Notes under the pieces: model-generated
What the model saw: only the letters and a program-made list of their open reading frames with translations
Told to the model about the DNA's origin: nothing
The model's database searches: none
From: Macrostomum lignano
Lineage: Eukaryota
Length of the DNA: 64,000 bases
Assembly: GCA_002269645.1 (NCBI GenBank)
Contig: NIVC01000801.1
Location: forward strand, 59,484-123,483
Reading direction: 5' to 3'
In this document: piece after piece, positions 4,912-60,640 of the stretch
Layout: the number at the start of each line of letters is the position of its first letter
Position numbering within the stretch: position 1 is the first letter of the stretch
Made by a program: the position numbers and the translations under genes

Positions 4912-5125
4912 ACCCTCCCTCAGTCCCTCAGGACCGTCACTACCCTCCCTCACTCTCTCAGGACTGTCGCTACCCTCCCTCACTCTCTCAGGACCGTCGC
5001 TACCCTCCCTCACTCTCTCAGGACCGTCGCTACCCTCCCTCACTCTCTCAAGACTGTCGCTACCCTCCCTCAGTCTCTCAAGACTGTCGCTAACCTCCCG
5101 TCAGTCCCTGAGTACCGTCGCTACC
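4912..5125. repeat. 30-bp minisatellite
   Basis: Unit CTCTCAGGACCGTCGCTACCCTCCCTCACT. Confidence 0.85.
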
Positions 5126-9900: not shown

Positions 9901-10412
9901 ATTGTCTCGAACCCGCAGGCCGCGAGTTCGGCTGCCGAGTCCGCATGTTCGACCCGTCGCTCACGCAGCTGGGCGAGCACAAGCGCGGCCCGAGGCAGTG
10001 GCTGCACCTGGTGGGCCTCGGCGGCGAGGACTCCGTGCGCAAGGACACGGGCTGGGCGGTGAACAGCCTGCAGACCATTCTCAGCCGCTACGGTCACTCT
10101 GGCGACATTGTCGACTTGCTGAAGATCGACATCGAATTCGATGAATGGGAGGCCTTGGAGGCGGCTGCGAAGGACGGCTCGCTGAGCCGGGTCAGGCAGC
10201 TGATTCTGGAGACTCACACGATGGAGCTGCGAGACGAGAGCACGGGGGGCAGCGACTACCTGAGATTTGCTCGGGTGTGGCTCGGTCTCTACAGGCTGGG
10301 ATTTCGGCAGTGGCGCAGCAGGGAGAACGGCAGGACTCACTTTCTAGGGCCCAGCGGCCGGAGCAGGGCCTGTTGCCATGAGCACTCGCTCATTAACATC
10401 AACTTTATGTAG
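6975..10412 (+). CDS. Type II membrane protein with two tandem METTL24-like (Methyltransf_22/FkbM-like) domains, 653 aa
   Basis: Exons 6975-7580, 8010-8871, 9919-10412 total 1962 nt in one open frame. N-terminal signal anchor RRKVLLSLLLLIGAALLFFYYAFA. Each domain shows GDGGxxVC, SFG, FDPS, D(I/L)LK(L/I)DIE..EW, VRQL..E.H and a terminal CC. Confidence 0.85.
7650..8000. repeat. ~20-bp minisatellite (AAACCTCTCAAAATCATTTG)n
   Basis: Degenerate tandem units in intron 7581-8009. Confidence 0.8.
8905..9900. repeat. Two opposed minisatellite arrays: (TTCCCATCCCTGTC)n 8905-9420 and (GATGGGAAGGCAGATCAGA)n 9441-9900
   Basis: 14-bp and 19-bp units that share the core CTTCCCATC on opposite strands. Confidence 0.9.
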
Positions 10413-10526
10413 ACACCAGTTTGAGCATTTGCATATGACTGGCATTTCTGAGCCTTCATTTTGAGGAGTTATGAGGACCTTTGAATTTGAGATAAACGTT
10501 GAGTGAGGGTTTGGAATACAGATACT

Positions 10527-11115
10527 GGGGATTTGGGATTAAAAATGGGGATTTGGGATTAATAATGGGGATTTGGGATTAATAATGGGGATTTGGGATT
10601 AATAATGGGGATTTGGGATTAATAATGGGGATTTGGGATTAATAATGCGGATTTGGAATTAATAATATGGATTTGAGATTAATAATGGGGATTTGGGATT
10701 AATAATGGGGATTTGGGATTAATAATGGGGATTTGGGATTAATAATGGGGATTTGAGATTAATAATGGGGATTTGGGATTAATAATGGGGATTTGGGATT
10801 AATAATGGGGATTTGGGATTAATAATATGGATTTGAGATTAATAATGATTTGGGATTAATAATGCGGATTTGAGATTAATAATGATTTGAGATTAATAAT
10901 GGGCATTTGGGATTAATAATGAGGATTTGGGATAAATAATGGGAATTTGAGAATAATAATGCGGATTTGAGATTAATAATGGGGATTTGGGATTAATTTT
11001 GGGGGATTTTGGATTAATAATGAGGGTTTGGGATACAGAATGGGGATTTGAGTTAATAATGAGAAATTGAGAATAATAATGGGGATTTGGGATTAATAAT
11101 GCGGATTTGAGATTA
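10527..11115. repeat. 20-bp minisatellite (GGGGATTTGGGATTAATAAT)n
   Basis: Direct tandem units. Confidence 0.9.
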
Positions 11116-11431
11116 ACAAGGGGGTTGAAATATTTATCTGTAGACTAACCTTTAAGTAATGTATATTCTGCTTCCATTATCAGAAAAAATTTTATTAGTT
11201 TAATATGATTACCCTGTATTCCCAGTGATGAATAAAAGATGATTTTTCACTAACAATTTACACAATTGCACTTCCTTTTGCACCGATTTTGAAATAGCCT
11301 CTATTGACAATTGTTAATTATTTATACGCTGTTATTGTGAGTTTTTTAGCTTTTTAGTTTAATTTTTACTTGTTTTATCTTTAGCTCGCTACTAATTCAG
11401 TAGCGCACTGCGGATGTTTTCACTCTAGCAG

Positions 11432-14400: not shown

Positions 14401-17400
14401 ATACTTTATGAAATTCCCTATAGGGGGCTGTCAAGTTCTTAAGCGGCTTCACCCCCCCCCGATCTCTGAGCCTCGCTTCCGCCTCGCGGCGCTCGCCTGC
14501 TCAAAATGCTCCATCAAATCTCAGACAAGATTTTTGGCATCGCTCTCAACAGTGCTCACCTTGACAGCGCACTTGAAATTATTGAGAAGAATTGCGTGAT
14601 AGAGTGCTTCGTATGCAGCCTGGCCACTGCAGATTGTGTTGCTGGTTGCCAGGTAGCTGGTCAAGCTTTAATGCCTTAATGTGGACTTTATAGGGAGGGA
14701 AATTTGAAGCGAAACTAATTCGAAAGAGTGACCTTCTGTGAGACTGGAGTGACTCACGTGCTGGGGCTGGAAAAGAAATGAGAGAAAAGGGAGAGGCAAG
14801 AGAAGGGAGAGGCAGAGAGAAGAGAGAGGGGGAGAACGGAGAGGGTGAGAGGTAGAGGACAGAGAGGGTGAGAGGTAGAGGACAGAGAGGGGTGAGAGGT
14901 AGAGGACAGAGAGGTGAGAGGTAGAGGACAGAGAGAGGTGAGAGGTAGAGGACAGAGAGGTGAGAGGTAGAGGACAGAGAGAGGTGAGAGGTAGAGGACA
15001 GAGAGGTGAGAGGTAGAGGACAGAGAGAGGTGAGAGGTAGAGGACAGAGAGAGGTGAGAGGTAGAGGACAGAGAGGGGTCAGGTAGAGGACAGAGAGGTG
15101 AGAGGTAGAGGACAGAGAGAGGTGAGAGGTAGAGGACAGAGAGAGGTGAGAGGTAGAGGACAGAGAGGTGAGAGGTAGAGGACAGAGAGAGGTGAGAGGT
15201 AGAGGACAGAGAGGGGTCAGGTAGAGGACAGAGAGATGTGAGAGGTAGAGGACAGAGAGAGGTGAGAGGTAGAGGACAGAGAGGGGTCAGGTAGAGGACA
15301 GAGAGAGGTGAGAGGTAGAGGACAGAGAGAGGTGAGAGGTAGAGGACAGAGAGAGGTGAGAGGTAGAGGACAGAGAGAGGTGAGAGGTAGAGGACAGAGA
15401 GAGGTGAGAGGTAGAGGACAGAGAGGGGTCAGGTAGAGGACAGAGAGAGGTGAGAGGTATAGGACAGAGAAAGGTGAGAGGTAGAAGGCAGAGAGGGGTG
15501 AGAGGTAGAGGACAGAGAGGTAGAGGACAGAGAGGTAGAGGACAGAGAGGTACATAAAATATCTTTCTTAGCGTTGGGCAGCCATCCAAGGCCCATACAT
15601 TCTTGTGGTGCAGCAGACCACGGCTGCAATCCAGTGCCAATTCTTGGCACGCAAAAGTACCTTCACCGACCCGAGAATTAGCCGAACTGGAATCAACTTG
15701 TCTCATCTGGCAGCTGCGCAGGGTGCAAAGCCGAACCCGCTAATTTGCACTTTGAAAGCAGCGTAGACAGCTAAAAGCAACAAGTGGTCCTGAAAGAAAT
15801 CCAAAAAGCAAACTCCACGTCCCCGCCGCATGTAGCTGCTGATAAAGTGCCGCGCGGTTGCAGCAAGGCGGGTTGGCAATGAAAGCGGCCATCATGACTA
15901 TTTAAAAAGAAGAGAGTAAACAGTTTATGAAAAACCCGCTTGTGTGTATTGCGGGGCAGGTATATTTATGATTTATTTATACAGTGGGTTCAGTTGGGCT
16001 GACAGCGATCTGAGCTGCTGCAATGACGGATGATTATGGCTTTTTGCGTAACGGTTTTGTGCAGAAGCAAGTCATCAACACGCTTTTGAATGCTTTGCTG
16101 ATGGTTACTAACATTCTTTGCTTCAGAGCCAGCTTGAAGACTCAACAGCGTCACCGGCTGTACCTGCATCAGCTGTCGTTTGAGCAGTGTGCTCAGCCAG
16201 CTGCGCCAGGGTTCGGGCATCCGCAGAGCTGCCTGGTTCAGCAGTGCCGGCCGAGGCCCATGACGCCTCTGCGGGTGAGATGCCTGCGTCTCATGTTTGG
16301 ACTGAGCACCTTCTGAGCTTCTCAAAAGAATTACTCAAAAATTTACTTAGTAATGCAGTAATTTTTCAGGAAAAAAACTAGGTAACTAAAACTGTCGGTG
16401 AACCGGTGTCTTGTGGCTTGCTTAAAAGTACAGATTAATAGTTTCTCAGGTAGAAGGTAATTTATGCCAATTCCCGTGCAAAGATTTCCACTCGGTTCTC
16501 CCATGGCCGAGTGCAGAATCAGATTTCCGTTGCCGTGGTCCGCTTGGTCCGTTTTGTTGGCTTTTGTGAAACACTTGTAGTTAGTTCTGGGTGGCTTAAA
16601 AAGCTGATCGGAACTTTTACAGACCCTCCCTCCTCTACTCCCTCTTCTCCTCTACTCCCTCTTCTCCAATACTCCCTCTTCTCCATTCTCTCTCCTTCCA
16701 ACTCTTCTCCTCTACTCCCTCTTCTCCTCTACTCCCTCTTCTCCATTCTCTCTCATTCCAACTCTCCGCTCTCTCCTCCCTCTTCTCCACTCTCTCCTCC
16801 CTCCTCTACGCTCTCCCCCCCCCTCTCTCCGCTCTCTCCTCTCTCCTCTCCACTCTCTTATCACTCATCTCCGCTCTCTCCTCCCTCCTCTCCGCTCTCT
16901 CCTCCCTCTTCTCCACTCTCTCATCACTCATCTCCGCTCTCTCCTCCCCCTCTCTCCACTCTCTCCTCCCTCCTCTCAGCTCTCTCCTCCCTCCTCTTCA
17001 TTCTCTCTCCTCCCTCGTCTCCGCTCTCTCCCCCTCTCTCCTCCTCTCACTCTCACATCTTCCTCTCCGTTCTCTCATCTTTCCTATCCTCCTCTCCGCT
17101 CTCTCCTTCCTGCTCTCTCCCTACACAGCCTGCCTTAGTGTAATACCCTTGGCCACCGCAAGAGTGCAATGCCAGCGCTATGCATTTATAGTTTACGCAC
17201 AAGAAATTCTACGGAATTCCCCCCCCCTCACACAGCTGGCTGGCAGCAGATGGCTCCTCAGGAATGCGGCAATCAAGCAATTCATTCAGCAGAACTGTAG
17301 AAGTTGTTGGACTTGCTTTTTACCGAACTGGAGTTCGGTGAACTGAGGGACTGAGGGATGCTCGACAGCCCGGGAAAATCCCGAGAGGAGATTTGCACTT

Positions 17401-20400
17401 TGCACTGTTATGCTTTAGATAGAATAGCTCTCTGGAATTGTATTTGCTTGAAGGTGAAGACTATGTTACTCAAAAAAATTAGAAATTTGAGCCTGTCCTT
17501 TACCTTCCTGCCTTTGACCTTTACAAACCCGCTTGAAGCGTGACCGTTCTCCCTCTGCACTCTAAGGAGACAAATTCCAATGCACATGTACTTACCTGTG
17601 CACTCTTTGGAGTGCAGCCACCAATGTGCGCTATTGTGTTGCAGTGTTTTGTTGTCCCCAGCAGCTGTCCGTCGCCGCTCAACTTAATCTTCATCATATC
17701 TCTTCCCCTCAGGGCGACTCTATCATTCATTCTCAGCCTCTCTTTGCGAAATCCATTCTCTCTGCTCTCTCTCTTCTGCACTGACCAACTGCCCTGCCTC
17801 TCTCCCTCCTTACCCTCTCTCCCTGTTTACTCTCTCTCCCTCTTTACCCTCTCTCCCGCTTTACCCTCTCACCCTCTTTACCCGCTCTCCCTATTTACTC
17901 TCTCTCCCTCTTTACTCTCTCTCCCTCTTTACTCTCTCTCCCTCCTTACCCTCTCTCCCTGTTTACTCTCTCTCCCTCTTTACCCTCTCTCCCACTTTAC
18001 CCTCTCACCCTCTTTACCCGCTCTCCCTATTTACTCTCTCTCCCTCTTTACTCTCTCTCTCCTCTTTACCCTCTTTACCCTCTCTCCCTGTTTACTCTCT
18101 CTCCCTCTTTACCCTCTTCTCCCGCTTTACCCTTTCTCCCTCTTTACCCCCTCACCCTCTTTACCCTCTCTCCCTCTTTACCCTCTCTCCCCTCTCTCCC
18201 CTCTCTCCCTCTTTACCCTCTGCGCTTGCCAGCGCTAAACAGTACCAGCGTCACTCCCCGCAGTTCCTCAGTCCAGCAGCTGCTGTCCCCTCCATTTCGC
18301 TGGGTCGCCAGCAACGCCATTGGGAGAGGCGGGGGCAGGAGTGGGAAGGTGCCAACAGTCTAACAGCGCCTCTCTACACTCGCAGACCAACGCTGCCTGA
18401 AGGAGTTGCAGGCAGAGAGTGGAGAAAAAAATTCTGAACGAACCCGCCTCGCCCCCCCCTCACGGCAGAAAAGACTTGGGCGAACGCGAAAGCACAAAAA
18501 CAATATGAGGAGAAAAGTGCGCAGCATGTCAGCAGTCCTTGTAAGGGAAGAAACACAGGGGATCGGGGGTAGGAAAAGGGAGAAAAAACTGATACTCGCA
18601 GACGTGTCCGGCATTTCCCTGTTGGGGAATTCGCACGCACGGCGATTGGGACAGACAGGGGCTGGCGCTGGTCCTAAAGAAGGGCGAGCCAGACAGACAG
18701 ACGGGAAAGCATTTTTGCACATCTGTATATTTTACGGCTTAGAATTGAGGTCTCAGTTCAGTGCCTATTTTTAGCTGGGCTACGGTTGATAACATATGCA
18801 AAATATACAGCCCGAAATTCGCAGAGCAACTCATTGACTGGCTTATTCGAGCAGTTCTCGGGTTCGATAATGAGTCCAGCTCATCCCAGACTGAGTTTAC
18901 TGTCCCGCAGTTTTAATCACAATAAGGTTTTTGAGTCCCAGGGTTCATTAGTGTCGAGTCGATGAGCTTTGAGGTGATTTATGATGGGTGATGGCCACAG
19001 ATGCGTGCAGTCATCGTTTTGCGACCATTGGGATTCGGGACACTCAGTCTCGTATATAGAGCACACACTTGGCGCTTGAATGGGAATAGGGGGCTTATAG
19101 GTAGACAGAGAGCGCTTATAGAGGGACAGAGAGCGCTTATAGAGGGACAGAAAGTTCTTATAGAGGGATGGAAAGTGCTTATAGAGGGACAGAAAGTGCT
19201 TATAGAGGGACAGAGAGTGCTTATAGAGGGACAGAAAGTGCTTATAGAGGGACAGAGAGCGCTTATAGAGGGACAGAAAGTTCTTATAGAGGGATGGAAA
19301 GTGCTTATAGAGGGACAGAAAGTGCTTATAGAGGGACAGAGAGTGCTTATAGAGGGACAGAAAGTGCTTATAGAGGGACAGAAAGTGCTTATAGAGGGAC
19401 AGAGAGTGCTTATAGAGGGACAGAAAGGGCTTATAGAGGGATGTAAAGTGCTTATAGAGGGACAGAAAGTGCTTATAGAGGGACAGAAAGTGCTATAGAG
19501 GGACAGAAAGTGCTTATAGAGGGATGGAAAGTGCTTATAGAGGGACGGAGAGCGCTTATAGAGGGACAGAGAGCGCTTATAGAGGGACAGAGAGCGCTTA
19601 TAGAGGGACGGAGAGCGCTTATAGAGGGACAGAAAGTGCTTATGGAGGGACAGAGAGCGCTTATAGAGGGACAGAAAGTGCTTATAGAGGTACAGAGCGC
19701 TTATAGAGGGACAGAAAGTGCTTATAGAGGGACAGAGAGCGCTTATAGAGGGACGGAAAGTGCTTATAGAGGGATTGAAAGTGTTTATAGAGGGACGGAA
19801 AGCGCTTATAGAGGGACGGAAAGTGCTTATAGAGGGACGGAAAGTGCTTATAGTGGGACGGAAAGTGCTTATAGAGGGACAGAGAGCGCTTATAGAGGGA
19901 CAGAGAGCGCTTATAGAGGGACAGAAAGCGCGTAGAGGGACAGGGCGCTTAAAAAGGGACAGGGAGCGCTTAAAAAGAGACAGGGAACGCTTATAGAGGG
20001 ACAAAGGGCGCTTAAAGGAACATAAGCACCTAATGAGGGACAGGTGGCGCTAGAAGAAGCGGGTCTAGGCCAATCAAAGTGCCCGCTCAAAGTGTCACTC
20101 TGTGCCCCCGCAGGCCTGGATCGGTTACCAAGGCAACGTGTACTTCAGCCCGCTGCTCATCCGAGGCTCTGGCTGCCCCTCAACAGCACCGGCAGCTATT
20201 GAATGCTCTGGTATCTACAGAGACCTGACTCACCATGGCAGGGACCTGACTCCCCATGGCAGAGACCTGACTCACCATGGCAGGGACCTGACTCACCATG
20301 GCAGGGACCTGACTCACCATGGCAGAGACCTGACTCACCATGGCAGAGACCTGACTCACCATGGCAGGGACCTGACTCACCATGGCAGGGACCTGACTCA

Positions 20401-32410: not shown

Positions 32411-34007
32411 GTAGTAGTAAGTAGTAGTAGTAGTAAGAGAATTTGGCTCAGGCAATTAGCCTGTTTGGCCAATATATTATAGAGCTATGTATTTGGAAAA
32501 ATTTTCGAAATAGAAGTTTATAAAGACGATTTGACGACGATTTGCCGAATTATTGTAAAAGATAAAGTATTTGAAAGCGCGCCAGAATTTTTACGGTATT
32601 TTTGGACGAAAAGTGACGACTAACAACTAACAACGAGTATAAAATATTAATACAAAAATGAGTACAAATTACGAGATATAGCTTTAATTGCGAGATTACT
32701 TTGGTAAGCGAGTTTGTAAAAAAAAAAGATGTAGTATTTTTGAAAGCGCGTGATATTTCAAAGCGTGAAAAACGAACATGAACAATACTTCGAAAGAACT
32801 TTACGTTTAACGAATAACGATGATTTAAATATAGGGAATTAAAAAAGACAGTAAATGAATAAACAACTGAAAAGCGGATTTGTTAAACTGCTAATGTATC
32901 TGATTCAGTTTGTTTAACTGTTTTAGCTATTCATGACTTCATATATTTTAGCTACACCAGTGAGTTCTTTTCTGACTCTTTTTTCGTTTGTAGCATATCC
33001 TATCTTGTGTATTTGATTGCTATTTAAGAGGTATTGACAGAAGTATTTCTTCCTGATCTCTTCAGTTTGTGGACATTCGGTCAAGTAGTGTAGAATGTCA
33101 GAACCATTTCGCACTCCACACATTTTACATGGTTCTTGAGAAAAAAAGTTGGGTGTAATCTCGCATTTCAGTTTTAGGAGGGTTGTTAAGAATTTTTTGT
33201 TTCTAAATGTACATGGAAAGAAATCTGAAAGGTCGGGCCTGCAGATTTTTTTGTAGAGATAGGCGTTTTTGTAGAGTTTAATATGTTGCTGATTCTCTAG
33301 CTTTTGGCTAAGTTCTCTTTCTCTGTGTATCTTGAGGTGCTTTTTCACTAGGTATTTCTCGTTATTAAAGCTTTGGGAAATTTTATCTTCAGTTAGTGCT
33401 TTTAGGTCTATACTTTCTAGTTTCTTTAGTACATTCATTTTCCATGGATTTTTTTGGCCGGTGTTTGAGTAGAAAATTTCTAGAGTCGTTTGGCAGAGTT
33501 TTTTGTGTCTAATCTTCAGCCAGTAGATGAGGTAGGATTTAGCGATTCGTTGAGAGATTGGAGTAAGCTCAAGTTCTGATGATATCACACTGTAGCTAGC
33601 AAATTTTGGTAGATTGAGGAGATATTTGTAGAATTTCAGCTGAATATTATCAATAGCTTTTGTATCAGACATGGTAGCCAGAGGGCCCCAGAGCTCACAA
33701 CCGTAAGTGATAACGGGGGTAACAAGCGCGTCGAATAGTCTGCGAATGAGTGTGATGTCTAGGGACGTATTCTTTACCCTATGGAGTAGGGAAAACATAG
33801 CTGTATATCCCTGCTTAGTTTGGTGTTCAATACATTTTTTAAAGCTGTTTTTTGGTTCAAAAATAATTCCCAGGTATTTAAATTCATTTACTTCCTCTAT
33901 TTCTTGGTTGTCGTAGTATATTTTTGTAGCAATGCTTTCTGTGTCGTTTTTTTGTCTGGTATTGCCCTGCATAAACTTTGTTTTGCTTGCATTTACTTTC
34001 AAGTAAT
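32411..34007 (-). mobile_element. LINE (non-LTR retrotransposon), 3' half: RT C-terminus, CCHC finger, 3' UTR and possible (TAC)n tail
   Basis: ORF 32923-34035: LKVNASKTKFM, FKYLGI, LFDALVTPVITYGCELWG, CKMC...HYLTEC. GTA-repeat at 32411-32436 is the putative tail. Confidence 0.85.
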
Positions 34008-35063
34008 TGATGTGTTCCTTATTACCAGTCCTCAACTGTAATCAAGGAACAATCACTTCTAGCTCTGTAGCTAGGCAACCCAGTAATCAAATGAAGGTAT
34101 TCAATTACCTTGATCCGGATTCCTTGATATCGTTCTTGAGTCGTTCGGTTCTGTAGATCTCTTAGACTTTTAGACGTCTTCAGATGTCGATCGGGTCCGA
34201 GTTTCCTTTTCTCTCCTTTCGAAGTATTTCCGGCCGGTATCTGTAGTGCGGACCAATGGGAAGCTTCCAAATTAACAATGGGTACCCTGCGCCAAATCTG
34301 CGGTTTAATATAAGCCTACTCCTTCTAGCAGTGCCTCTATGCACTCTAGGTATAGCTCCGGAAACCACTGATAGTCTTCTAAGACCTATCAGGGGCAGTC
34401 CTTCTGGAGACTGCAACCAGTGGAGTCTAAACAGACTCAAGAGTCTCAACAGACTCAAATAAACTCAAGTCTCAATAGACTTGAGCGAGACGTCTCAACC
34501 AACGGGCGCAAATGAGTAAGGCTTACCGCAAGAACTCGTCCACGACGCGAGTTTCTTCAGGAAGGCTTCACTAGAGCTTCCTCTTCGGAGCTTCTCTCTC
34601 TTGGAGATTTCTTGGCTCCGGGTCCGTTCCGGACCACTTGTATTTATAGGCAAATGGACCCCCATGAGGTCACGTGAGTCCAACTCTTCAGCTGTCAAAA
34701 AGGTCACGGTTTGGTTGCTGTCAAACTTGGCAGGGTAGAAAGTTATTCCATTGGTTCAGTGTAAAAGCGCGTGATTGGTCATCGCATTCGAGTTATTTTT
34801 AGTTACATTTGATTGGGTCACGTGCGTACAGTTGAATGATGCATCTTTCCTGGGGTTTGCGTTTGACAAGTACAGGTTACACGTGATTGGGTGATTTCTA
34901 AATTTAACATGCACAAGGTCTCTCTCTTCCTATTGGTTAGTCAGAATAAACTTATAATTCAAAGCATACCTTTATTCATGCTCTTCAACTTACTACTGAA
35001 TAAAATGTATGAGTAGTACATTAACACTTTTATGTCTTCTTACGGGAGGTAGAACACTCTACA
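34008..35063 (-). repeat. 3' LTR (1056 bp)
   Basis: Direct repeat of 43784-44839 (offset 9776); only one mismatch noticed by eye (C34783 vs T44559). Confidence 0.97.
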
Positions 35064-35605: not shown

Positions 35606-38600
35606 TTAACGAGGTCGCAGATTATAGCCGTGCGGCTGGCTCTCGTTCGTTGTTTGAGTCTCCTCGTGTTTCGTTGCGATGTGGCGGTTTGTCGAACGCG
35701 TGCGGTCGGCATTGTCAAGTGACGGTAGAAATGTCGCCGTGTCAGTGTTGATCTTCTTTAGTCGATGAATGTGCACGTAGAATTGGTGCTGATGAGGATC
35801 TTGCACATTGGCCAGGCGTGCCGTTGTCGGTGACGTTAGTTGGACCACTCGATATGGTCCTTTGTACTTCTGTGCGTGTTTGTGCGTCTGTTGCGGCGGA
35901 TAGTGCAGGTAGACGATGTCGCCGGCTGTCAGAGTTGTCGATCTCGTGTCGGTGCCGGTGGTTAGAGCCACCTGATTGTCGATGTTGTGCTTGGCTACTT
36001 TCCATGCGAGGTGTAGTTGCGTGACGAACTTTTGAATGGACGTCGGGACTTCCACATATTGCGATGGTAGTAGTTGCTGTGCCAATAGGTTTGGCGGCTG
36101 GAAGTCTCGCCCAAACATTAGAAAGAATGGCGTATTATCCGTTGATCGATGAATAGCGCTGTTGTAGGCCATTGTTACTGCTTGCAGATAGATGATCCAG
36201 TCGTCTGGTTGTTGATGCGCGAAGTGTGTAATCATCTCGTGTAGGTTGCGGTGAAACCTTTCAACCATGTTCGCCTTCGGATTGTAGGTCGATGTGTAGA
36301 TCTGCGTGATGTTGAGGATCTTCACCACTTGCTGAAAGAGTTGAGACGTAAACTGCGATCCATTGTCCGATGTGAGGTTCTTTGTCGTACCGTACTTGCA
36401 GATGATGTCGTTGAAGAAACCCATTGCCACTGTCTGAGCTGTGATGTCCGGTATTGGTATGGCAATAGCAAACTTTGAGAAAATGTCCAAGGCGGTTAGG
36501 ATGTAGGTGTAGGCTATGCCATGGAGACAGCTCGGTGGCAGCGGTCCGGTGATGTCGATGCTGAGACAGTCCATAGTTGTTGACTTCGGTATCGATTGTA
36601 GCTGTGGTTTCTGTCGTCGCCCTGTCTTTGATGCTGCGCATGAGTGGCAATTGTTGCAATACTGTTTGATGTCGCCATGCATGCTTGGCCAAAAGTAGTA
36701 TTGCTCCACTCTTGCAATGGTTTTGGCTGCCGACAGGTGTCCAGCGAGTGGGTTGTCGTGCAGCTCGTTGAGAATGGCCTGCCTAAACGAATATGGCATG
36801 TAGATTCTAGGTTTGTTGTCACTCATCCAGTAGAGTCGTGACTTGTTGATTGTTAAATGTTGTCGCTGCTTGCGCAGGAATTTTCGTTCCACGGGGCTGA
36901 GCTTGATGTCCTTGTCGTTGTTTTTAACTGCTATGTAGAAGTTGTCGTGTTCAGTCTCATCCACCAATTCCTTGATGTTAGGGATTGGATGAATGGCGTT
37001 GACTTCGTAGGCTCTTGACAGAGCGTCCGCAGCCTTGTTAGTAATTCCTGGTTTGTAGACCAGCTTGTAGTTGTAGTCCTGGATCTTGAGCGTCATCCTG
37101 ATGAGTCGGTTATTTGTTTGTCCTTTTGTAGTTACGACGTAAGTCAGCGGTGCGTGATCTGTGCGTACTATCGTCGGTATTGGAGAACCATAGATGTAGT
37201 AATGGAACTGTCGTAGGGCGAACAAGACTCCTAGTAGCTCGCGTTCCGTAGCTGACCACTTTGTTTCATTTGGCTTGAGTGCTCGACTGACGTAGGCGAT
37301 AGGTCGCTCCTTCTTGTCCTCGGTTTCCTGTAGTAGGACGGCTCCGAGTCCCGTTCCTGAGGCGTCTGTCTCGATGATGAAGGGTTTGTCGAAGTCCGGA
37401 TGCTGTAGTAGTGCGTCTGATGTCAGTTGTCGTTTGATTTCGTCGAAACTCTCTTGCTGCTTTTGCGTCCAGTTCTCTCGTTTCCACTTGTCGAATTTGA
37501 GCAGGTCGTACAGCGGTTTTGCTGTCTTCGCGAAGTTCGGTAAAAACTTTCGGAAGTATTGCGCTAGTCCAAGAAACGATTGGACCTTCGTAATGCTAGT
37601 TGGCGTAGGAAACTTTTTTACTTTCTCCACATTGTCTGGGTCCGGTGAGATTCCTTTGGCTGTCACTTGGTGTCCTAGGTAACGTACGTTGTCTCGGAAG
37701 AATTTGCATTTCGTCGGTTGTAGCTTAAGACCTTGGCGTTGAATGAGCGCTAGGGCCTTCTCCGTAGCTTCATAGAGTCGTTGGAAGTCTTCTCCGTAGG
37801 CCAAGATGTCGTCGACATAGTGCAGCAGGTTTGTGCATCCTGCAAGCATGTATGCCGTTAGTCGGCTCATTGTTGCTGGGCTGTTGCTGAGTCCCATTGG
37901 CGATCGGTTGTACTCGTAGACTTGTCCATTGTAGGTCTTAAAAGCCGTGTACTGTCGTGATTCTTTCTCGATTTCAATTTGCCAAAATCCATGACGTAGG
38001 TCGAACACCGTGAACAATTTTGCTGTGTTGAGCTTTGCTAGTAGCTCGGAGATCTTTGGTAGGCTTTGCTGATCCGTCGGTATGTACTTGTTTAGCAGTC
38101 TGAAGTCGCATACAAGTCGTCTTTCGTTAGTCTCCTTCTTTTGTACCAGTAGGCACGGTGAGGAATAGGCTGAAATTGCTTTGCTGATGATGCCGTGCTT
38201 TAGCATTTTATCAATAATTTCGTCAAAGTGTTGTTGCAGATGCTTGGCAATCGGGTACGGCTTGCACTGAATTGGTTCAGTGTGCGGTAGAAGCTTGATT
38301 TCTTGTTTAATGTCTTTAGCGCGTCCGATGTCGTAATCATGATGGCAGAAGGCTTCGTTGTACTTCCACAACAGTTGTCGAACTTTCTTCTTTTGCTGTT
38401 CCGTGATCGGGCTGTCGTCCAAGTTGATTTTCTTTTGAAATTCTTCTTCTGTTAGTCGTGGAGTCGTGTGCTCAATCAGCATAACTGATGCTTGAGTGTT
38501 GAGATGACCGATGCACATTCCTTGTCGTAGATGAACCATTTCCGCGTTCGGGTTGAAGATTTGTACTGGCAGCTGCTTATCTTTCGCCACCAGCACTAGT

Positions 38601-40231
38601 GCCGTAGGCATCATGATTTGATGTTTTGCCGTGACTCTCCTGTGTGGATCAAATATCATTGCTTCATCTGCCGCGCTGGTCGCTTTCGCTCTGACCCAGC
38701 ATGCACTTTCAGGCTGGATGATGACATCTTGCTGTAAGGTAACTTTTGGTAGTACTCGAATCTGGTTAATCAGTGGTTGCTCCACCGTGTCAATCCTAAA
38801 CGTTTGCTTGTTGAAGTCGAAGGTCAATGGTAGTCGAAGCTGCTTGAACGTGTCGATTCCAACAATGACGTCTTGGTTTGGTAGTTTGTCGATGATGTAC
38901 GTCGGGACCGTCAGATGTTTATTAGCAATTTTCAAGTCGATATCTGCTTTTCCTAGGATATTGAGTGAATGTCCTCCTGCTCCTGCAACTGCGATTGCTG
39001 CTGGTCGTACCGCGAGTCGTAGCTTGTTGCATAATTGTTGCGAGATGACGGTGATAGAGCTGCCTGAATCCAGTAGTGCTCGACATGGCAAGTTGTTGAC
39101 AATGACCTGAGCCATTGCCTTGCCAATCTCAGCGTGTAGCGTGCAGACGTAGTTTTCTGGCCATTTCGGCTCGTGTTGATCCTGCTGATAGCCAGGTGGC
39201 TGCATTCTCGGTGCTGTTGGTGTTGTCGGAATCGATGGATACATTCGCGTTGATGGTGTCGGCTGTCCTTGAGTTTCTTGACGTGCATCCTCTGTCAATT
39301 CCAAGTTGTTGTCTTCTTCCCTTGGTATCTTCTGCATGATGGCGTTCACTGTTCGTTTCGCTGTGGGACAAGTGTTGCTGAAGCATCGTACTATCGACGA
39401 GATGATAAAGATTGCCGTAACTACCCATACAACACAGGCACTGTAGAAGATGAAGCCTTGATATAGGCTGCCTCTTCCGTTAAGCAGCTCTAAAAAGCTG
39501 TTGGTCCAAAACGATTGGATGGCGTTGTCCATAGACACTAGGACCGGGAAACTGCCTGTGCCTGTTCCTTTATTCTTTCGTGTGAAGAGTTGACGAATCA
39601 TCTTCCGTTGAGTGATGAACGCTTGCAAGAAGTCGTTGATGGTCCATCCGGGTGTTATCTCATCGAGTTGGATATCGGCGAATGGCGTGTACTTCGTTCT
39701 GTTAAACCGTATCTTCAGATCGTCCATATCGTACGTTTCATCGACAATCACTTCTGGTTCCGTGATATTCGCTGTCGTTCCTGTCGTTTTAATGACGTGT
39801 AGTGCATCGTCCAGTTGATAGTAGTTTGCTGCAGTGGTGCAGGGTCTTGGTATGGCTGTGCCAACGATGATGTTGTGTACCGTGTCCAAGAATCCTTGTA
39901 TTCTTTTGCCTTCGTAGAATGCTTCAATTCTCGGCTTGTCGTAGCAAGTTGTTGAAGTGTTCGACGGCAAGATGTTGAAGTGCTGTATCGGCGTGCACTT
40001 GTATATCAGGAGATGTCCATATATCGGAATTGCCAGAACCTCTCTCATTCCCGTGATCTTGCGAAATGTCATCGTAGGGTTGACATAGTAGTTCTGTCTT
40101 GCGTAGTTCAAGTTGATTGCGTGCATTTTGCAAGTTAGCTGAACCAGTGACCGATGTAAGTGGTTAAGCTGGTTATGCAGGTTGTGATCCAGCGCCGTGA
40201 TCTTTGCTGACAGCAGTCGGTTTGACACCAA
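35606..40231 (-). CDS. pol: Env C-terminal half (ectodomain, TM, tail) fused in frame to Pol (aspartic protease, RT, RNase H, integrase)
   Basis: TM ~39457-39389; LLDSGS at 39070; YSSPCLLV, RLVCDFR, YVDD at 37819-37808; TDASGTGLGAVL; HDNPLAGH..C..C; DITGP, SDNGSQF, VERFH; GPY; terminal YNLRPR. The frame is open upstream to ~40309. Confidence 0.95.
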   Translation of the reverse strand: MVSNRLLSAKITALDHNLHNQLNHLHRSLVQLTCKMHAINLNYARQNYYVNPTMTFRKITGMREVLAIPIYGHLLIYKCTPIQHFNILPSNTSTTCYDKPRIEAFYEGKRIQGFLDTVHNIIVGTAIPRPCTTAANYYQLDDALHVIKTTGTTANITEPEVIVDETYDMDDLKIRFNRTKYTPFADIQLDEITPGWTINDFLQAFITQRKMIRQLFTRKNKGTGTGSFPVLVSMDNAIQSFWTNSFLELLNGRGSLYQGFIFYSACVVWVVTAIFIISSIVRCFSNTCPTAKRTVNAIMQKIPREEDNNLELTEDARQETQGQPTPSTRMYPSIPTTPTAPRMQPPGYQQDQHEPKWPENYVCTLHAEIGKAMAQVIVNNLPCRALLDSGSSITVISQQLCNKLRLAVRPAAIAVAGAGGHSLNILGKADIDLKIANKHLTVPTYIIDKLPNQDVIVGIDTFKQLRLPLTFDFNKQTFRIDTVEQPLINQIRVLPKVTLQQDVIIQPESACWVRAKATSAADEAMIFDPHRRVTAKHQIMMPTALVLVAKDKQLPVQIFNPNAEMVHLRQGMCIGHLNTQASVMLIEHTTPRLTEEEFQKKINLDDSPITEQQKKKVRQLLWKYNEAFCHHDYDIGRAKDIKQEIKLLPHTEPIQCKPYPIAKHLQQHFDEIIDKMLKHGIISKAISAYSSPCLLVQKKETNERRLVCDFRLLNKYIPTDQQSLPKISELLAKLNTAKLFTVFDLRHGFWQIEIEKESRQYTAFKTYNGQVYEYNRSPMGLSNSPATMSRLTAYMLAGCTNLLHYVDDILAYGEDFQRLYEATEKALALIQRQGLKLQPTKCKFFRDNVRYLGHQVTAKGISPDPDNVEKVKKFPTPTSITKVQSFLGLAQYFRKFLPNFAKTAKPLYDLLKFDKWKRENWTQKQQESFDEIKRQLTSDALLQHPDFDKPFIIETDASGTGLGAVLLQETEDKKERPIAYVSRALKPNETKWSATERELLGVLFALRQFHYYIYGSPIPTIVRTDHAPLTYVVTTKGQTNNRLIRMTLKIQDYNYKLVYKPGITNKAADALSRAYEVNAIHPIPNIKELVDETEHDNFYIAVKNNDKDIKLSPVERKFLRKQRQHLTINKSRLYWMSDNKPRIYMPYSFRQAILNELHDNPLAGHLSAAKTIARVEQYYFWPSMHGDIKQYCNNCHSCAASKTGRRQKPQLQSIPKSTTMDCLSIDITGPLPPSCLHGIAYTYILTALDIFSKFAIAIPIPDITAQTVAMGFFNDIICKYGTTKNLTSDNGSQFTSQLFQQVVKILNITQIYTSTYNPKANMVERFHRNLHEMITHFAHQQPDDWIIYLQAVTMAYNSAIHRSTDNTPFFLMFGRDFQPPNLLAQQLLPSQYVEVPTSIQKFVTQLHLAWKVAKHNIDNQVALTTGTDTRSTTLTAGDIVYLHYPPQQTHKHAQKYKGPYRVVQLTSPTTARLANVQDPHQHQFYVHIHRLKKINTDTATFLPSLDNADRTRSTNRHIATKHEETQTTNESQPHGYNLRPR

Positions 40232-40284
40232 TCGTGGACGTACTATGTCGCGTCGTTGTCTCTCTTGTTGCTGATATGTTCCGT

Positions 40285-41772
40285 TTATGATTGCCGGAAG
40301 GTTTGTTTGTCACCATCCTTCACGTAGACTGGTATTTCTTGTTCTGAAATGAATAGCGTCTTGTCCGTATCTTTGCATTTGAGTTCCTGTTCGACCGGCT
40401 TCTTTTGAAACGTCAAGGCCAAGTCTCCTGCTTTTGCCAAAAATGTATTCGACAGTAGTCCTCCTTCCACTGTGTGATACTTTTGAAGCTTGCAGTCAAT
40501 TTCCGGCTCTACTTCCCATGCGAAGTAATATTGTCGTGCCTTGTACGGTTCCTCATAGTGTGAGTGTGCTCTGTGCTCAATCTGCCATCGATAGTTTTGA
40601 TGATATGTTGGACTTAGTGGTAGACTGTGTAATTCTTCCTTCCGTAGAATTGGTGTTGGACACCATCCTTCACTGTATCGACATTCGCTTAGTTGCAGCT
40701 GTAGCGATTCCATTTTCTCGTATGGATTGTAGTAGAATGGAATATTTCTGATCAAGTAGCTGTTGCGTGCCACATATTCTTTCCATTTTCCGAAGAAGTG
40801 AATGTATCGACCGTTGGCTGAATTCTTTGTTCTGAACAGCTGTGCGTTGCCGACCTTCTCATCTGGTTCCAGTTCACCATCCTTTGAAAACAGTGTTTGG
40901 TTCCATTGTAGGCATTCCGCGTGCGACACATGTAGCTCATGTTGTTTAAATCGGATCCGATTCCATTGTCCGCGCCAAACTTTTTCCACTAGGTGCTTGT
41001 CTCTGAAGCACACTATTCCGTGTTGTCGATGCTTTTTGATGTTAGCCTTGTAGAGATCGAGTGTAATCTTCTTTGGCTTCGTCTGGTTTGTCTTGAAGTA
41101 GCTGCATTTGATGTCGGTTGGTATCTTGTAGATCATCGGTTGGATATGCGCATCCGTTGGACAGATCATTGGTTTTTCCGTTGCCGTTGCTTTGGCGACT
41201 ACTGCTATCAGTAGTATCATGATGATCCAGAATAGCCAGTTTTTCCACTTCTTGGACCTTGCCGTTGTCTTTGCTGGCATTGGCTGCGATCGCCATTCGT
41301 TGTCTTCCATGTCCGCATCGTATTCTTTCGGTTGCTCTATTGGCTGTTTCAGGCGGAAGGGTTCTGATTCGCTTTGCTTTTTGGTTATTTCAGTATCTTC
41401 GTCTGCCGCTTCTTCTGATGTTTCAGTTGTTTCACTCCATTGCGTTTGGTATTTTCTCTCTGTCTTGTAGTCGACTGTTTGAATGTAGGCTTCACCATTT
41501 CGTTTGTATCGGATCTCGTAGCATTCGTCGCTGTCGGAACTCGGCTTTTCTTTCCTCTGTTCTTTTTCCATGTCTTCATCTTTCCATTGTATTTCGTAGC
41601 CTTGATCGCTGTCGGAACTTAGATTTTCCGCTCTCAGTTCTTCCTGCATTCCTTCTTCGGTTCGGTATCCGTTCGTGTCATCGCGCACCTCGCAGTCGTG
41701 ATCGTTGCCGTAACTCATACATTCTTCTTCTTTTATTTCTTTGTCTTTCATGCTTATTTTGTCGTCATCCAC
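40285..41772 (-). CDS. Acidic spacer, internal signal sequence and N-terminal half of a class III-like viral fusion glycoprotein
   Basis: Hydrophobic WLFWIIMILLIAVV (~41238-41191), then a Cys-containing ectodomain (PMICPT, GIVC, VSHAEC, ECRYSEGWC, DCKL, ISEQ) with NQT sequons. Confidence 0.7.
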   Translation of the reverse strand: MDDDKISMKDKEIKEEECMSYGNDHDCEVRDDTNGYRTEEGMQEELRAENLSSDSDQGYEIQWKDEDMEKEQRKEKPSSDSDECYEIRYKRNGEAYIQTVDYKTERKYQTQWSETTETSEEAADEDTEITKKQSESEPFRLKQPIEQPKEYDADMEDNEWRSQPMPAKTTARSKKWKNWLFWIIMILLIAVVAKATATEKPMICPTDAHIQPMIYKIPTDIKCSYFKTNQTKPKKITLDLYKANIKKHRQHGIVCFRDKHLVEKVWRGQWNRIRFKQHELHVSHAECLQWNQTLFSKDGELEPDEKVGNAQLFRTKNSANGRYIHFFGKWKEYVARNSYLIRNIPFYYNPYEKMESLQLQLSECRYSEGWCPTPILRKEELHSLPLSPTYHQNYRWQIEHRAHSHYEEPYKARQYYFAWEVEPEIDCKLQKYHTVEGGLLSNTFLAKAGDLALTFQKKPVEQELKCKDTDKTLFISEQEIPVYVKDGDKQTFRQS

Positions 41773-41977
41773 TGTTGTCGATTCATAGTTGTTCTCTTCG
41801 TCGGTCCCCCTCTTTTCTTCGTTGCCGGTATCGCTCTCCGCCTCCTCCCTTTTTTGTGATTTACTTTCTTCCTGTTTTCTCTGCTGTCTCCGGTGGTCTC
41901 TTTTAATTCGATCATTTCGGTTTCATTTGCCTCTTCTGTCTTGTCAGTGTTGTCCTCGTGCGTTGTCTTCTTTTCGA

Positions 41978-43066
41978 TCAAGCTGATGTCATTTCCAAGT
42001 CGTCAATTGTGAACACTTGCTGTTCTTGCTGCTCATTTTCCGGTGTGTACGTGATGGCATTCGCGTATCGTGGCATTGCTTGCGTTGGCTGTCTTTGTGT
42101 GTACCTGGCGTTGCGTGGCCTGTAGCTATTATTTCTGAAGCGGCCGTCATTTCCGAAGCGGCCATCATTTCCGGAGCGGTCATTATTTCCGAAGCGTCTA
42201 TCATTTCCGAAGCGTCTCATGCCTTGTTGTTGGCGACTTTGATACTGCTGCCATGGTTTCTGCGGCTTTTGATTGTTAAATGTCTGTCGCGGCTTGTCGT
42301 ATCTTGTTGACCAATGAGGACAATTAATCTGATAATGTCCTTCTTGTCCGCAGTAGTAACATCTGGCGGAGGCTTGTTCATTTCGTCTTTTTTGTTCGGC
42401 GATAGCAGCTGTCTGGTGCTGCATTAACTTGTTTAATTGCTGCGTCAGTTTCTGCACTTCATTGTTGCCTGTCGTCATTAATGGGGCACTGGCTTCCCAT
42501 TGCATTCCGCACCGCAAAAGGTCTTCTTCGGTTTCGATATTTTCACGCAAAAGTCTATCCCGAAGTGACGGCTGTGCGTTGTTTATTACGTGCAGGATGA
42601 GGTTTTGTTCGCGATCCATCAATCGTTGTCTTTCTCTGGCGGCCAATTCTGCCGCTCCCAGTGGCGGTTGGTCCGCAGCTTGCAGCGGTGGCTGATGCAG
42701 TGCTTTAATTATCTGGCGGATATCGTCCACAAAGGCGAGGAAGGATTCCGTTGCTTGCATCCTTCTGTTATGTAACTTGTGCAGCAGCACTGATCTGTTT
42801 GTGCCGCAACGGTTGAAATGCGCGCGCAGTTGAATGATTAGTGCTGGATAATTTTGCTGTGTTGCCGCGTCCAGCTTGCCGTAAATTTCTCGCGCAGTAC
42901 CTTGGAGAAGAGGTGGCAGCAGCTGTGCCTTCTCTGGATTTTGTAGGTTGTATTCCCTACATACCAGGTCGAAATGGTCGACAAATGTGTTAAAATCTTT
43001 CTCCATCGCGAAGGTATCGACCGTTTCTTTGATGTCTCTGTGTACCGTTGGATTGCGCCGCGCCAT
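41978..43066 (-). CDS. gag: Gag (capsid-like region plus CCHC nucleocapsid knuckle)
   Basis: DFNTFVDHFDLVC...LLQGTAREIY; CYYCGQEGHYQINC; RFGND repeats. Confidence 0.9.
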   Translation of the reverse strand: MARRNPTVHRDIKETVDTFAMEKDFNTFVDHFDLVCREYNLQNPEKAQLLPPLLQGTAREIYGKLDAATQQNYPALIIQLRAHFNRCGTNRSVLLHKLHNRRMQATESFLAFVDDIRQIIKALHQPPLQAADQPPLGAAELAARERQRLMDREQNLILHVINNAQPSLRDRLLRENIETEEDLLRCGMQWEASAPLMTTGNNEVQKLTQQLNKLMQHQTAAIAEQKRRNEQASARCYYCGQEGHYQINCPHWSTRYDKPRQTFNNQKPQKPWQQYQSRQQQGMRRFGNDRRFGNNDRSGNDGRFGNDGRFRNNSYRPRNARYTQRQPTQAMPRYANAITYTPENEQQEQQVFTIDDLEMTSA

Positions 43067-43761
43067 GTTGTTGATAGGATAGAACGGTAGTTCAAGATCT
43101 GGATCGATTTGTAACGGATCGTCCAGTGTGGTGTTTGCCTCGGAATAAACTTCGACTGTAACGAATTGCCTTGTGGTGTCGATTTGTTATTCGCTGGCCT
43201 CGAATGCGGTGTGGCTTGCTGCCACTGGTTGTCCTCAAATGAACTTGTTCTGTTCGCTTGCTGATTTCGCACTTATGCGGCGTCCCGCAAAGTGTATCTT
43301 CAAGTTGAAGTGGACTTTGTCTTCTTGCTTTGCAAAGGCTTTTTTCTCTTCTTTGACTTTCCTTCTTTTGTCAATTAACTCCGCTCTCCACGAAGTTTCA
43401 ATTAATTTCGGTTTTGTTTTAGTTTTTGTGCCGATAAAATGTTTCAGTTATTTTTTTGTTTGTTTTGCTTCGACGATTCTTTTATTTTCGGTTTGTTTTC
43501 AGTGTACCGATGAAGTTAATTTCGGTTTATTTTAAACTCACACTTGCTCGAGCTCGTTAAAACAAAAATTTACACGCGTGCTCAGACTGTACTCAAAATT
43601 GACAGGTGCTCAAACCTGTACACCAAAATTTTTACTCGAGTTTCAAAACGTTCGGACTTCAAAAGTGTTAACTCTAACACGTGCGCGCAAAATTAATGAA
43701 GTCGCTCTTTCGTCACGTTACAATAGCTTGATCAGGGCTATTGCTCAAAGTTTGAGTAGTG

Positions 43762-43781
43762 CCGAGAGGGCGAGATCACCA
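43762..43781 (-). other. Putative primer-binding site
   Basis: TGGTGATCTCGCCCTCTCGG begins 2 nt inside the 5' LTR boundary; the cognate tRNA was not identified. Confidence 0.55.
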
Positions 43782-43783
43782 AT

Positions 43784-44839
43784 TGATGTGTTCCTTATTA
43801 CCAGTCCTCAACTGTAATCAAGGAACAATCACTTCTAGCTCTGTAGCTAGGCAACCCAGTAATCAAATGAAGGTATTCAATTACCTTGATCCGGATTCCT
43901 TGATATCGTTCTTGAGTCGTTCGGTTCTGTAGATCTCTTAGACTTTTAGACGTCTTCAGATGTCGATCGGGTCCGAGTTTCCTTTTCTCTCCTTTCGAAG
44001 TATTTCCGGCCGGTATCTGTAGTGCGGACCAATGGGAAGCTTCCAAATTAACAATGGGTACCCTGCGCCAAATCTGCGGTTTAATATAAGCCTACTCCTT
44101 CTAGCAGTGCCTCTATGCACTCTAGGTATAGCTCCGGAAACCACTGATAGTCTTCTAAGACCTATCAGGGGCAGTCCTTCTGGAGACTGCAACCAGTGGA
44201 GTCTAAACAGACTCAAGAGTCTCAACAGACTCAAATAAACTCAAGTCTCAATAGACTTGAGCGAGACGTCTCAACCAACGGGCGCAAATGAGTAAGGCTT
44301 ACCGCAAGAACTCGTCCACGACGCGAGTTTCTTCAGGAAGGCTTCACTAGAGCTTCCTCTTCGGAGCTTCTCTCTCTTGGAGATTTCTTGGCTCCGGGTC
44401 CGTTCCGGACCACTTGTATTTATAGGCAAATGGACCCCCATGAGGTCACGTGAGTCCAACTCTTCAGCTGTCAAAAAGGTCACGGTTTGGTTGCTGTCAA
44501 ACTTGGCAGGGTAGAAAGTTATTCCATTGGTTCAGTGTAAAAGCGCGTGATTGGTCATTGCATTCGAGTTATTTTTAGTTACATTTGATTGGGTCACGTG
44601 CGTACAGTTGAATGATGCATCTTTCCTGGGGTTTGCGTTTGACAAGTACAGGTTACACGTGATTGGGTGATTTCTAAATTTAACATGCACAAGGTCTCTC
44701 TCTTCCTATTGGTTAGTCAGAATAAACTTATAATTCAAAGCATACCTTTATTCATGCTCTTCAACTTACTACTGAATAAAATGTATGAGTAGTACATTAA
44801 CACTTTTATGTCTTCTTACGGGAGGTAGAACACTCTACA
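43784..44839 (-). repeat. 5' LTR (1056 bp)
   Basis: TGTAGAG...ACATCA on the - strand, flanked by TSD. Confidence 0.97.
44417..44712 (-). promoter_or_regulatory. LTR U3 promoter: TATA box with upstream CCAAT boxes and CACGTG E-boxes
   Basis: TATAAATA at 44424-44417; CCAAT (- strand) at 44526, 44550, 44588, 44662, 44708; CACGTG at 44447, 44595, 44656. Confidence 0.55.
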
Positions 44840-45795
44840 TAATTTTGCTTGCAGTAATTTTCCATAGTCGTAAATGTGTCTTGAAGTTCGTCTTTGTTTT
44901 TAGCTAGAATGGCTTGATCGTCTGCAAAGAGTAGGATGAGTGGGAAAGCAGATCTCGTAAGAGCGCCTAGTGCTAGAGAGTTCAAGATATTCAACAATGT
45001 CGTCAATATATAGTGCAAAAAAGAAGGTAGAGAGGGTTGCCTTGAAGAACACCTTTAGATATTGGGATTGGCTGGGTTTCATCATCATCATCATCTTTTT
45101 TTAGAATGAAGCATGCAGGCATTTTTATGCATGTTCTTGATAAGTTCCGTCATTATATTTGACCTTTAATACCCTGGTTATCCGTTTTGTGCCAAAGGGT
45201 CGGTTGATTAAGCTATCGAAGGCTTTTTCATAGTCAACAAATCCAATAAAGAGTTCTTCTTTGTTGTAGATGGATTGGTTAATAATGTTGTAAAGATTAA
45301 AACATTGGTCAATTGTACTGTGATTGGGCTTGAAACCGTATTGGTATTTTGATATAAGATTGTTTGCGTATGCTAGGTTTTCGAGTCTGGATTTAATAAT
45401 TTGGCAAAAGAGCTTGCCAAGAATTGGTTGAATGCAGATTCCTCTGTAATTGTTGGGGTCGGCACTGCTGCCTTTGTTGTTATAAATCGGATGAAGTTTA
45501 TTTGTTATCCAACTAGTTGGGAAGGTTCCTTGTTTGAGTGCTTCGTTGAAAAGTGAGCATAGGAGGTCAGCAAGTTCGTTCTCGAGGTATTTGAGTGTTT
45601 CTACATATACTTTATCGTGCCCAGGTGCTTTGTCAGTTTTGAGCTTTTTAATATGTTTTATAACTTCTTCTTTGGTGAATGGGGCATTGAAAACCTCTAA
45701 ATCAGCCAGAATAGGGTTGTCAAGGTGAAGATTGTATGATAGTCTAATGCTGCTGTCTTGTTCAGTTACAAGATTTTGAAAGTGTATGACGAACG
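44840..45795 (-). mobile_element. LINE 5' half (RT N-terminal domains, 5'-truncated, frameshifted)
   Basis: - strand reads KAPGHDK, NYRGICI..ILGKLF, QYGFKP, FVDYEKAFDS, GVLQG, LYIDDI, LFADD. It rejoins the 3' half in frame (MENYCKQNYLKVN) once the LTR element and one TSD copy are removed. Confidence 0.9.
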
Positions 45796-46705
45796 TAGCA
45801 AGGAGTTATTTTGGCAATTGTAAAATTTACGTACTGGCAAGCTATGTTTTTAGCTATAAGTTATTGAATTTTTTAAACAGTTTTTGAGTAGAATTAGACA
45901 ACGATAACGAAATTTACAATAGATAAAAAAGTACCTTACTTGTTTTAAAAATTGTTATAACAGCTGATTGTTTTCATAGAACATTCAAAATTTTAATTTC
46001 GAAGGTTTTTATTATGACGGTGCTTTTTTATGAGTAAGTGACTGTGAGATTGAGGCAACTGATTTTTCAATACTTAGGACATTCAAATATTCTGTAATCA
46101 TATTCATAGATGATATAGATAAGATGTTTAGAAATAACAAAAATCCTGCTTTCATAGCTCGGAACGCTTAGTTTACTATTTAAAGCCGAAATATTCTAGC
46201 GCCCAGGCCTACAGAAAGGAAATCACGCGCGTGATGAATCATAAATAGCTTTAAAAATTTGTGTTTGCAGTTAACTAAAAAGTTTTTATAATTTGCAAAA
46301 ACTGATGTTTCCCTTATTTTCAAAATATATTGAATTGATATAATGATATTCGAGTTCAAGTACTTTCGCTTGCTTCTACTAGTACTATATAATATAATCT
46401 ACCTAGTGCTGAAAAATTGCATGCAGGACTTCAGTCAGTTATATATGAATGATTATAATGTCATAGCTACTTTTCTTTATTATAAAATACAAAATAGGCC
46501 TATAGTATGGCCTTGCTAGCATTGGCTGTTTTATAGAATAGCCTAGTGGCTATAGTGTTACCCATACCATAGACATAGTCAGGAAGATAGCATTTTTCAC
46601 GGAAAATTCTGGCACAAAAGGAGGTTAGACGTGTGCCACATTGGCACTAGCGCATTTTGCTACAAGTTTGCAAGGGAGAAAAATCTAGCATAATATGGGT
46701 ATAGT

Positions 46706-51579: not shown

Positions 51580-60640
<9,061 letters not shown>

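Follow-up and report, generated by a model that had tools for sequence, protein, structure and literature searches.

Late-domain-like motifs in the envelope tail of a gag-env-pol Ty3/gypsy element from the flatworm Macrostomum lignano

Does an envelope-carrying retroelement hold the signals for leaving its host cell on the tail of its own fusogen? The question is raised by a locus in the 64,000-nucleotide stretch of Macrostomum lignano DNA analyzed here (the window), where three short motifs lie between the membrane helix of an envelope protein (Env) and a protease. A sequence-only reading of the locus had proposed that these motifs may recruit ESCRT through the glycoprotein tail rather than through Gag. 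Env-carrying Ty3/gypsy elements are known across invertebrates, and the evidence that those outside insects leave the cell has so far mostly been the presence of env itself. Late domains under selection would be a separate sequence signature of egress, and one that names testable host partners.

Architecture of the element and its Env

The window contains a young insertion of a 10.8-kb Ty3/gypsy element, which lies on the minus strand, as do all of its features given below, and has env placed between gag and pol. Paired long terminal repeats (LTRs) of 1,056 bp each, a primer-binding site, and a target-site duplication were all found. The 5′ LTR (43784 to 44839) has TG...CA ends, and the 3′ LTR (34008 to 35063) is part of a 1,063-base repeat with 2 mismatches, of which one falls immediately beyond the LTR. 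Since the LTRs differ at one position, the insertion is very recent. The target-site duplication has 4 bp (44840 to 44843 and 34004 to 34007), and the 12-base primer-binding site (43770 to 43781) is identical to the one that the supplement of PMC13524379 gives for Mlig_errantivirus_2.

Gag (41978 to 43186), with one CCHC zinc knuckle and without a strict late motif, is followed by an acidic linker between nucleocapsid and the first hydrophobic helix (41239 to 41922) and by this helix itself (TM1, 41182 to 41238), a putative internal signal sequence with a candidate AxA-type peptidase site. Next come an ectodomain in an N-terminal half (40285 to 41181) and a C-terminal half (39455 to 40309), with a furin-type RQRR (40250 to 40261) at a basic site that aligns across lineages, and a second helix, the Env membrane anchor (TM2, 39389 to 39454), located by sequence and hydropathy scan. 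The 76 residues behind TM2 (39161 to 39388) form a tail, or preprotease spacer, predicted by hydropathy to lie on the cytosolic side. This tail is in frame with pol (35606 to 39160; protease catalytic Asp at 39068 to 39070), for which Pfam confirmed the Ty3/gypsy order of protease, reverse transcriptase (RT), RNase H, and integrase. A single frame of 1,567 codons (35606 to 40309) thus runs from the second half of Env through membrane helix and tail to protease, RT, RNase H, and integrase. Among database proteins, the closest (91% identical) is a retrovirus-related polyprotein from Macrostomum lignano, and when the Env-tail-protease region served as query in a word-seeded search of proteins, 1 of 7,998 scored candidates matched. 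The element splits an apparent LINE reading frame, with an RT fragment upstream (Pfam RVT_1; 45125 to 45805, minus strand) and a probable continuation, without a Pfam match, downstream (32923 to 34041, minus strand). The rest of the window (1275 to 19900 and 53190 to 60000) holds many short-period tandem arrays with units of about 12 to 26 bases, plus ATCT runs.

The frame of this copy is broken twice, between gag and the linker (about 41990 to 41850) and where the two ectodomain halves meet (near 40300), and the source of these breaks may be mutation or assembly error. Because its siblings mostly read through both junctions, we conclude that the element is designed as a single Gag-Env-Pol chain: the zinc knuckle and the start of Env share one stop-free frame in 15/20 family loci, and the mid-env junction is read through in 27 of 30 (the best 30 of 41 DNA matches). 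A single open frame from Gag to integrase is accordingly found in the family, although not in this copy, and open frames of at least 2,400 codons contain 16 of the family's 135 protein matches. With 27/30 loci continuous there, we rejected programmed frameshifting as the cause of the mid-env break. No env-removing joint was seen among the 15 joints listed, of 18 in all, from contigs of four sequencing runs (all 30 bins covered), contigs being a source that cannot exclude a spliced form.

Env is a relative of the class III fusogen gB of herpesviruses. A profile built from eight sister lineages matched gB with an E value of 3.6e-12, five of the eight profile members matched Pfam Monjiviricetes_fusion, and a structure modeled for one sister Env (pLDDT 62, pTM 0.39) returned gB in every Foldseek match listed, with a best E value of 1e-17 and a TM score of about 0.25. 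The two ectodomain halves in the window are 61 to 66% identical to this modeled Env, and the C-terminal half matches Monjiviricetes_fusion below the cut-off (E value of 5e-4). It is the two hydrophobic helices flanking the gB-like ectodomain that suggest a topology with a cytosolic tail. Right behind the anchor helix lie two Cys (39365 to 39385), also present in both sister lineages, which are possible palmitoylation sites. Two further features vary across the genome's lineages: three of them carry a long mucin-like insert rich in Thr, Ser, and Pro directly before the furin-type site of Env (L093:644-2518, L095:4019-5893, and L096:3953-5827), and the zinc knuckles of Gag number three in two lineages (L098, L099, L100, and L101), two in one (L096 and L097), and one in this family.

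The tail motifs and their recurrence among relatives

The 18-residue stretch that drew attention to the tail is, as first read, the minus-strand translation of 39188 to 39241 and lies between TM2 and protease, 49 residues past the former and 40 before the catalytic Asp; it is in frame with the protease-to-integrase part, while the env frame of this copy is broken upstream. A Met directly before the stretch makes its first motif MYPSI (39230 to 39244), of the ALIX type (ΦYPx[LI]), which is followed by PTAP (39209 to 39220), of the TSG101 type, and PPGY (39188 to 39199), of the Nedd4 WW type PPxY. All three match late-domain patterns (YPxn[LI], P[TS]AP, and PPxY), and the strict patterns occur nowhere else in the element's Gag, linker, ectodomain, or Pol. 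Gag does contain a YPAL, but this was not accepted as a late domain, as it fails the strict pattern and is located in the capsid region, where it presumably belongs to a helix. The clustering of the three motifs had been called notable, and shuffling agrees: all three came together in 37 of 1,673,877 shuffles of the 38-residue Pro-rich part with the loose pattern YPx(1-3)[LI] and in none with the strict one, and they never co-occurred in 50,000 shuffles of the 76-residue tail, where the single-motif rates were 0.014, 0.002, and 0.037. Both tests were made after the fact, on a stretch picked for its motifs, so that the weight of the argument rests on tests in other lineages.

Within the family, [LM]YPSI is present in 31/31 loci (the window's own included), PTAP in 30/31, and PPxY in 31/31. 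In the last, P, P, and Y are invariant, and the free position takes four residues (N in 21 loci, T in 6, G in 3, and I in 1). Only 1 of 10 motif-defining sites varies, compared with 26 of 63 other tail sites (Fisher P of 0.08; 27 of the 31 loci, the 4 with indels being dropped, in 11 haplotypes), which is suggestive only of constraint on the motif residues. The whole motif block is missing from the tail of P0003, a database protein that belongs to this family and is either a deleted copy or a gene-prediction artifact.

Of the more distant env matches in this genome, 40 loci were taken up, 4 of them without a protease motif and several with broken tails. Nine lineages were compared with one representative each, whose Envs are 23 to 86% identical and whose tails, with 10 to 22% Pro, are 17 to 54% identical. 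Conservation of the motifs in related elements, which the sequence-only reading had made its touchstone, was borne out for two of the three classes: P[TS]AP is present in 7/9 lineage tails, compared with 0.27 expected from shuffling, and [LMI]YPx[LI] in 6/9, compared with 0.04, where Ile at the first position was allowed only after inspection of the data (strict [LM]YPx[LI], 3/9) and where P values from shuffling overstate independence, the lineages being related. PPxY, by contrast, did not exceed chance level (1/9 compared with 0.48 expected, P of 0.39), the cluster of all three motifs is found only in this family, and one of the nine tails holds no motif at all. Both enriched classes occur in each of three deep clades of the Env tree (8 rows, with lineage G absent), which are joined by branches of about 3 changes per site. 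The motifs are kept where the flanking residues are only about 20 to 30% identical, and their order differs, the Tyr motif preceding PTAP in this family and following it in sister lineages.

The proposal that the late motifs sit in Env rather than in Gag holds in part. In its favor, the element's own Gag and linker are free of strict motifs, and the PPxY of this family is in the tail, with no counterpart on the Gag side. However, Gag, Env, and Pol form one chain in the siblings, and five lineages (L091, L092, L093, L095, and L096) carry a Gag-side PPxY or PSAP, with Env tails that lack PPxY.

Beyond this genome, a profile search gave 474 proteins with E values of ≤0.001, of which 150 were listed and 75 had an anchor helix called. 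Without three from this genome's own families and seven with tails shorter than 40 residues, 65 distant tails remained, with limits set automatically and several anchor calls falling within the protease. Here all three classes exceed expectation: P[TS]AP in 8/65 (0.60 expected), ΦYPx[LI] in 5/65 (0.28), its strict form [LM]YPx[LI] in 3/65 (0.17), PPxY in 9/65 (1.27), and any motif in 17/65 (2.11). Among the 27 distant proteins with a protease found downstream, 8 had a motif, compared with 0.85 expected. Two of the motif-positive proteins, P0005 and P0007, are similar to lineages of this genome and possibly stem from close hosts. Five decoy patterns stayed at chance level in the same 65 tails (0 to 3 matches, compared with 0.25 to 1.27 expected). 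In the same proteins, the motifs matched 9 times per 32,270 residues of ectodomain as opposed to 22 times per 6,950 residues of tail, and the linkers from zinc knuckle to TM1 in 35 distant proteins showed no enrichment (0, 0, and 2 matches). Yet the motifs are not needed across the group as a whole, because 48/65 distant tails, like the one lineage tail mentioned above, have none.

Where the protease begins bears on which protein the motifs would end up on. A Trp-Pro pair at the end of the tail (39158 to 39163; same position in L051 to L090) is present in 8/9 lineages, lies 22 to 60 residues ahead of the catalytic Asp in 6/31 distant proteins, and occurs in 13/65 distant tails, compared with 5.9 expected. 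The protease probably starts at or after this pair, and the motifs would thus remain on Env; the pair itself is possibly a protease site or an additional motif.

Egress, sorting, and other readings of the motifs

The host genome encodes the partners that such motifs would call for, namely a TSG101 UEV domain, ALIX V-domain exons, and HECT domains, the last not sorted into the Nedd4 type. Relative to human TSG101, the host UEV keeps T58, Y68, N69, M95, and V141, with His in place of Tyr63 as a point against recruitment, and the host ALIX keeps the KFY stretch of its V domain. We take the kept residues of both to be binding-pocket positions. A TSG101 M95A variant appears in the literature. In the host tsg101, coding parts are separated by a tandem repeat (L146:2091-2606) whose translation reads as repeated YPSIPP, which is probably a noncoding coincidence.

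We give a probability of roughly 0.6 to the reading that the motifs are late domains which, from the Env tail, recruit ESCRT and drive the release of enveloped particles. The ectodomain would be directed by TM1 into the lumen of the ER, with TM2 stopping the transfer, so that Gag and the tail with Pol would face the cytosol and the immature particle would be tied to the membrane from its synthesis onward. PTAP would then bind the UEV domain of TSG101, MYPSI the V domain of ALIX, and PPGY a Nedd4-type ligase, after which the neck would be severed by ESCRT-III, with budding either from the cell surface or into endosomes. Later, the protease would cut downstream of the motifs and leave them on the Env tail. 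This proposal of ESCRT recruitment through the tail gains from the conservation of two motifs and loses from a three-motif cluster that is specific to the family and from the majority of distant tails that are empty. It is tempting to go further and regard the gag-env-pol metaviruses as budding and infectious from cell to cell, with a third egress design in which the virion is one membrane-threaded polyprotein, ESCRT is recruited by the tail of the fusogen, and TSG101, ALIX, and Nedd4 motifs are repeatedly gained, lost, and reordered across lineages; this we hold tentatively, at somewhat less than even odds.

The motifs are no proof of budding, since endosomal sorting of membrane proteins uses the same motifs. 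Late-domain-type motifs are reportedly used in this way by LITAF. The main rival to budding is accordingly that ESCRT and Nedd4 ligases are recruited to sort Env, or Env-Pol, into multivesicular bodies, for a lower surface level or for degradation, and not for virion scission. Sequence statistics cannot separate the two, and endosomal sorting is described for LITAF and similar host membrane proteins (PMC5095921, in part). The tail also has three Lys, and turnover might be useful where a chain with Gag, Env, and Pol at 1:1:1 would overproduce Env. We nevertheless regard sorting as unlikely, though a serious contender: redundant motifs of three classes side by side, with swaps from lineage to lineage, are what viral late domains typically show (PMC8402826 and PMC2958808, both in part), and sorting into multivesicular bodies shares its machinery with budding, so that the two may here be one event. 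Alternatively, YPSI could be a tyrosine endocytosis signal (YxxΦ) read by AP-2, with the other two motifs incidental. It does fit YxxΦ, and such signals are frequent in viral glycoprotein tails (PMC5217368, in part), but P[TS]AP would be left unexplained. Moreover, YxxΦ without Pro at +1 is at chance (1/9 lineages compared with 2.33 expected and 25/65 distant tails compared with 25.3), whereas YPxΦ is enriched (6/9 compared with 0.51 and 8/65 compared with 2.88), which makes an AP-2 signal very improbable; dileucine and LPxY motifs showed no enrichment in the tails.

Equally little credit goes to the view that the motifs are functionless matches in a Pro-rich spacer, inherited by descent. The Pro content of the tails, the YPSI in the translated repeat of L146, and the many distant relatives without a motif would fit such a view. 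Judged by sequence statistics, however, the motif stretch exceeds chance: the tails stand out from background in composition-preserving shuffles, against decoys, and against the controls from ectodomains and Gag linkers, and the motifs persist in changed order while their surroundings diverge. Finally, the spacer might be a p6-like end of Gag that was stranded behind TM2 by the insertion of env and now serves as a cleaved peptide or protease regulator, not as an Env tail. HIV p6 is located just ahead of the protease, the position of the spacer here, and the Gag-side PPxY or PSAP of the five lineages named above would also suit this origin. In elements without env, by contrast, the reading frame of the protease is free of such motifs ahead of the protease (40 loci; 0/11 protease clusters), a control that is imperfect in that the regions compared are zinc knuckles and not Pro-rich spacers; their matches are a PTAP behind the zinc knuckle in one cluster, a PPQY about 285 to 320 codons upstream in 3 loci, and two more P[TS]AP outside the protease frame (L131 and L137). 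As there is also no stop or frameshift between TM2 and the motifs, and as the likely protease start lies downstream of them, a stranded p6 is the least probable of the explanations considered.

Relation to known systems

Egress by way of late domains thus remains the reading that we favor, and the recurrence of the motifs in distant relatives suggests, at the level of sequence, that these elements bud from cells as particles. No account of late domains in these Env tails was found in the literature searched, a search with most subscription journals outside its scope, and their presence there appears to be a so far undescribed trait of some members of the gag-env-pol group. RNA interference (RNAi) and transgenesis are established in the flatworm that hosts the closest named relatives. 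In such an RNAi-capable animal, the question of egress becomes approachable by knock-down of host genes.

Foamy viruses have a long cytosolic segment before the Env signal helix, and their Env takes part in egress. The element shares with them a predicted long cytosolic segment ahead of this helix; however, foamy viruses have their late domains in Gag and their Env as a separate gene, whereas here the motifs are on the Env tail and Env is in the shared chain. The nematode endogenous retroviruses (NERVs) are said to have a continuous gag-env-pro-pol frame, a trait in which the family of this element resembles them. Env precedes pol both in NERVs (Sacco et al. 2022, doi 10.1099/jgv.0.001739, as cited in the part of PMC13524379 available to us) and here, although the NERV hosts belong to a different phylum.

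The architecture of the element has already been published, and by architecture it is a member of the GAG-ENV-POL errantiviruses of the HSV/gB type described from Nematoda, Bryozoa, and Platyhelminthes, including Mlig_errantivirus_2 (Chary and Hayashi, eLife 2026, PMC13524379, in part). It agrees with this group in gene order, in a gB-type Env between two hydrophobic helices, and in having many young copies. With Mlig_errantivirus_2 in particular it shares the 12-base primer-binding site, a likeness drawn by description only, whereas the LTRs of that element are about 864 bp long, compared with 1,056 here. The main text of PMC13524379, as far as it was available, analyzes ectodomains and has no match for “late domain,” “ESCRT,” “budding,” “cytoplasmic,” or “polyprotein.”

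A precedent for late domains outside capsid and matrix proteins is NS3 of bluetongue virus, a membrane protein that aids release through its motifs PSAP and PPRY (PMC4452911, in part), although NS3 is nonstructural, is no fusogen, and comes from an unrelated virus. The pattern YPxn[LI] is an ALIX motif in Ebola virus VP40 (PMC5217368, in part), and retroviral late domains include PTAP with YPXnL in HIV p6, LYPSL in RSV, and a Gag with three motifs in HERV-K (PMC8402826, in part). The same three motif classes are clustered here, likewise in a Pro-rich stretch. Retroviral late domains, however, are in Gag or matrix, while those of this element lie behind the anchor of the fusogen and before the protease of the same chain, a layout unlike that of retroviruses, in which a single Gag-Env-Pol chain has the candidate scission signals on its fusogen.
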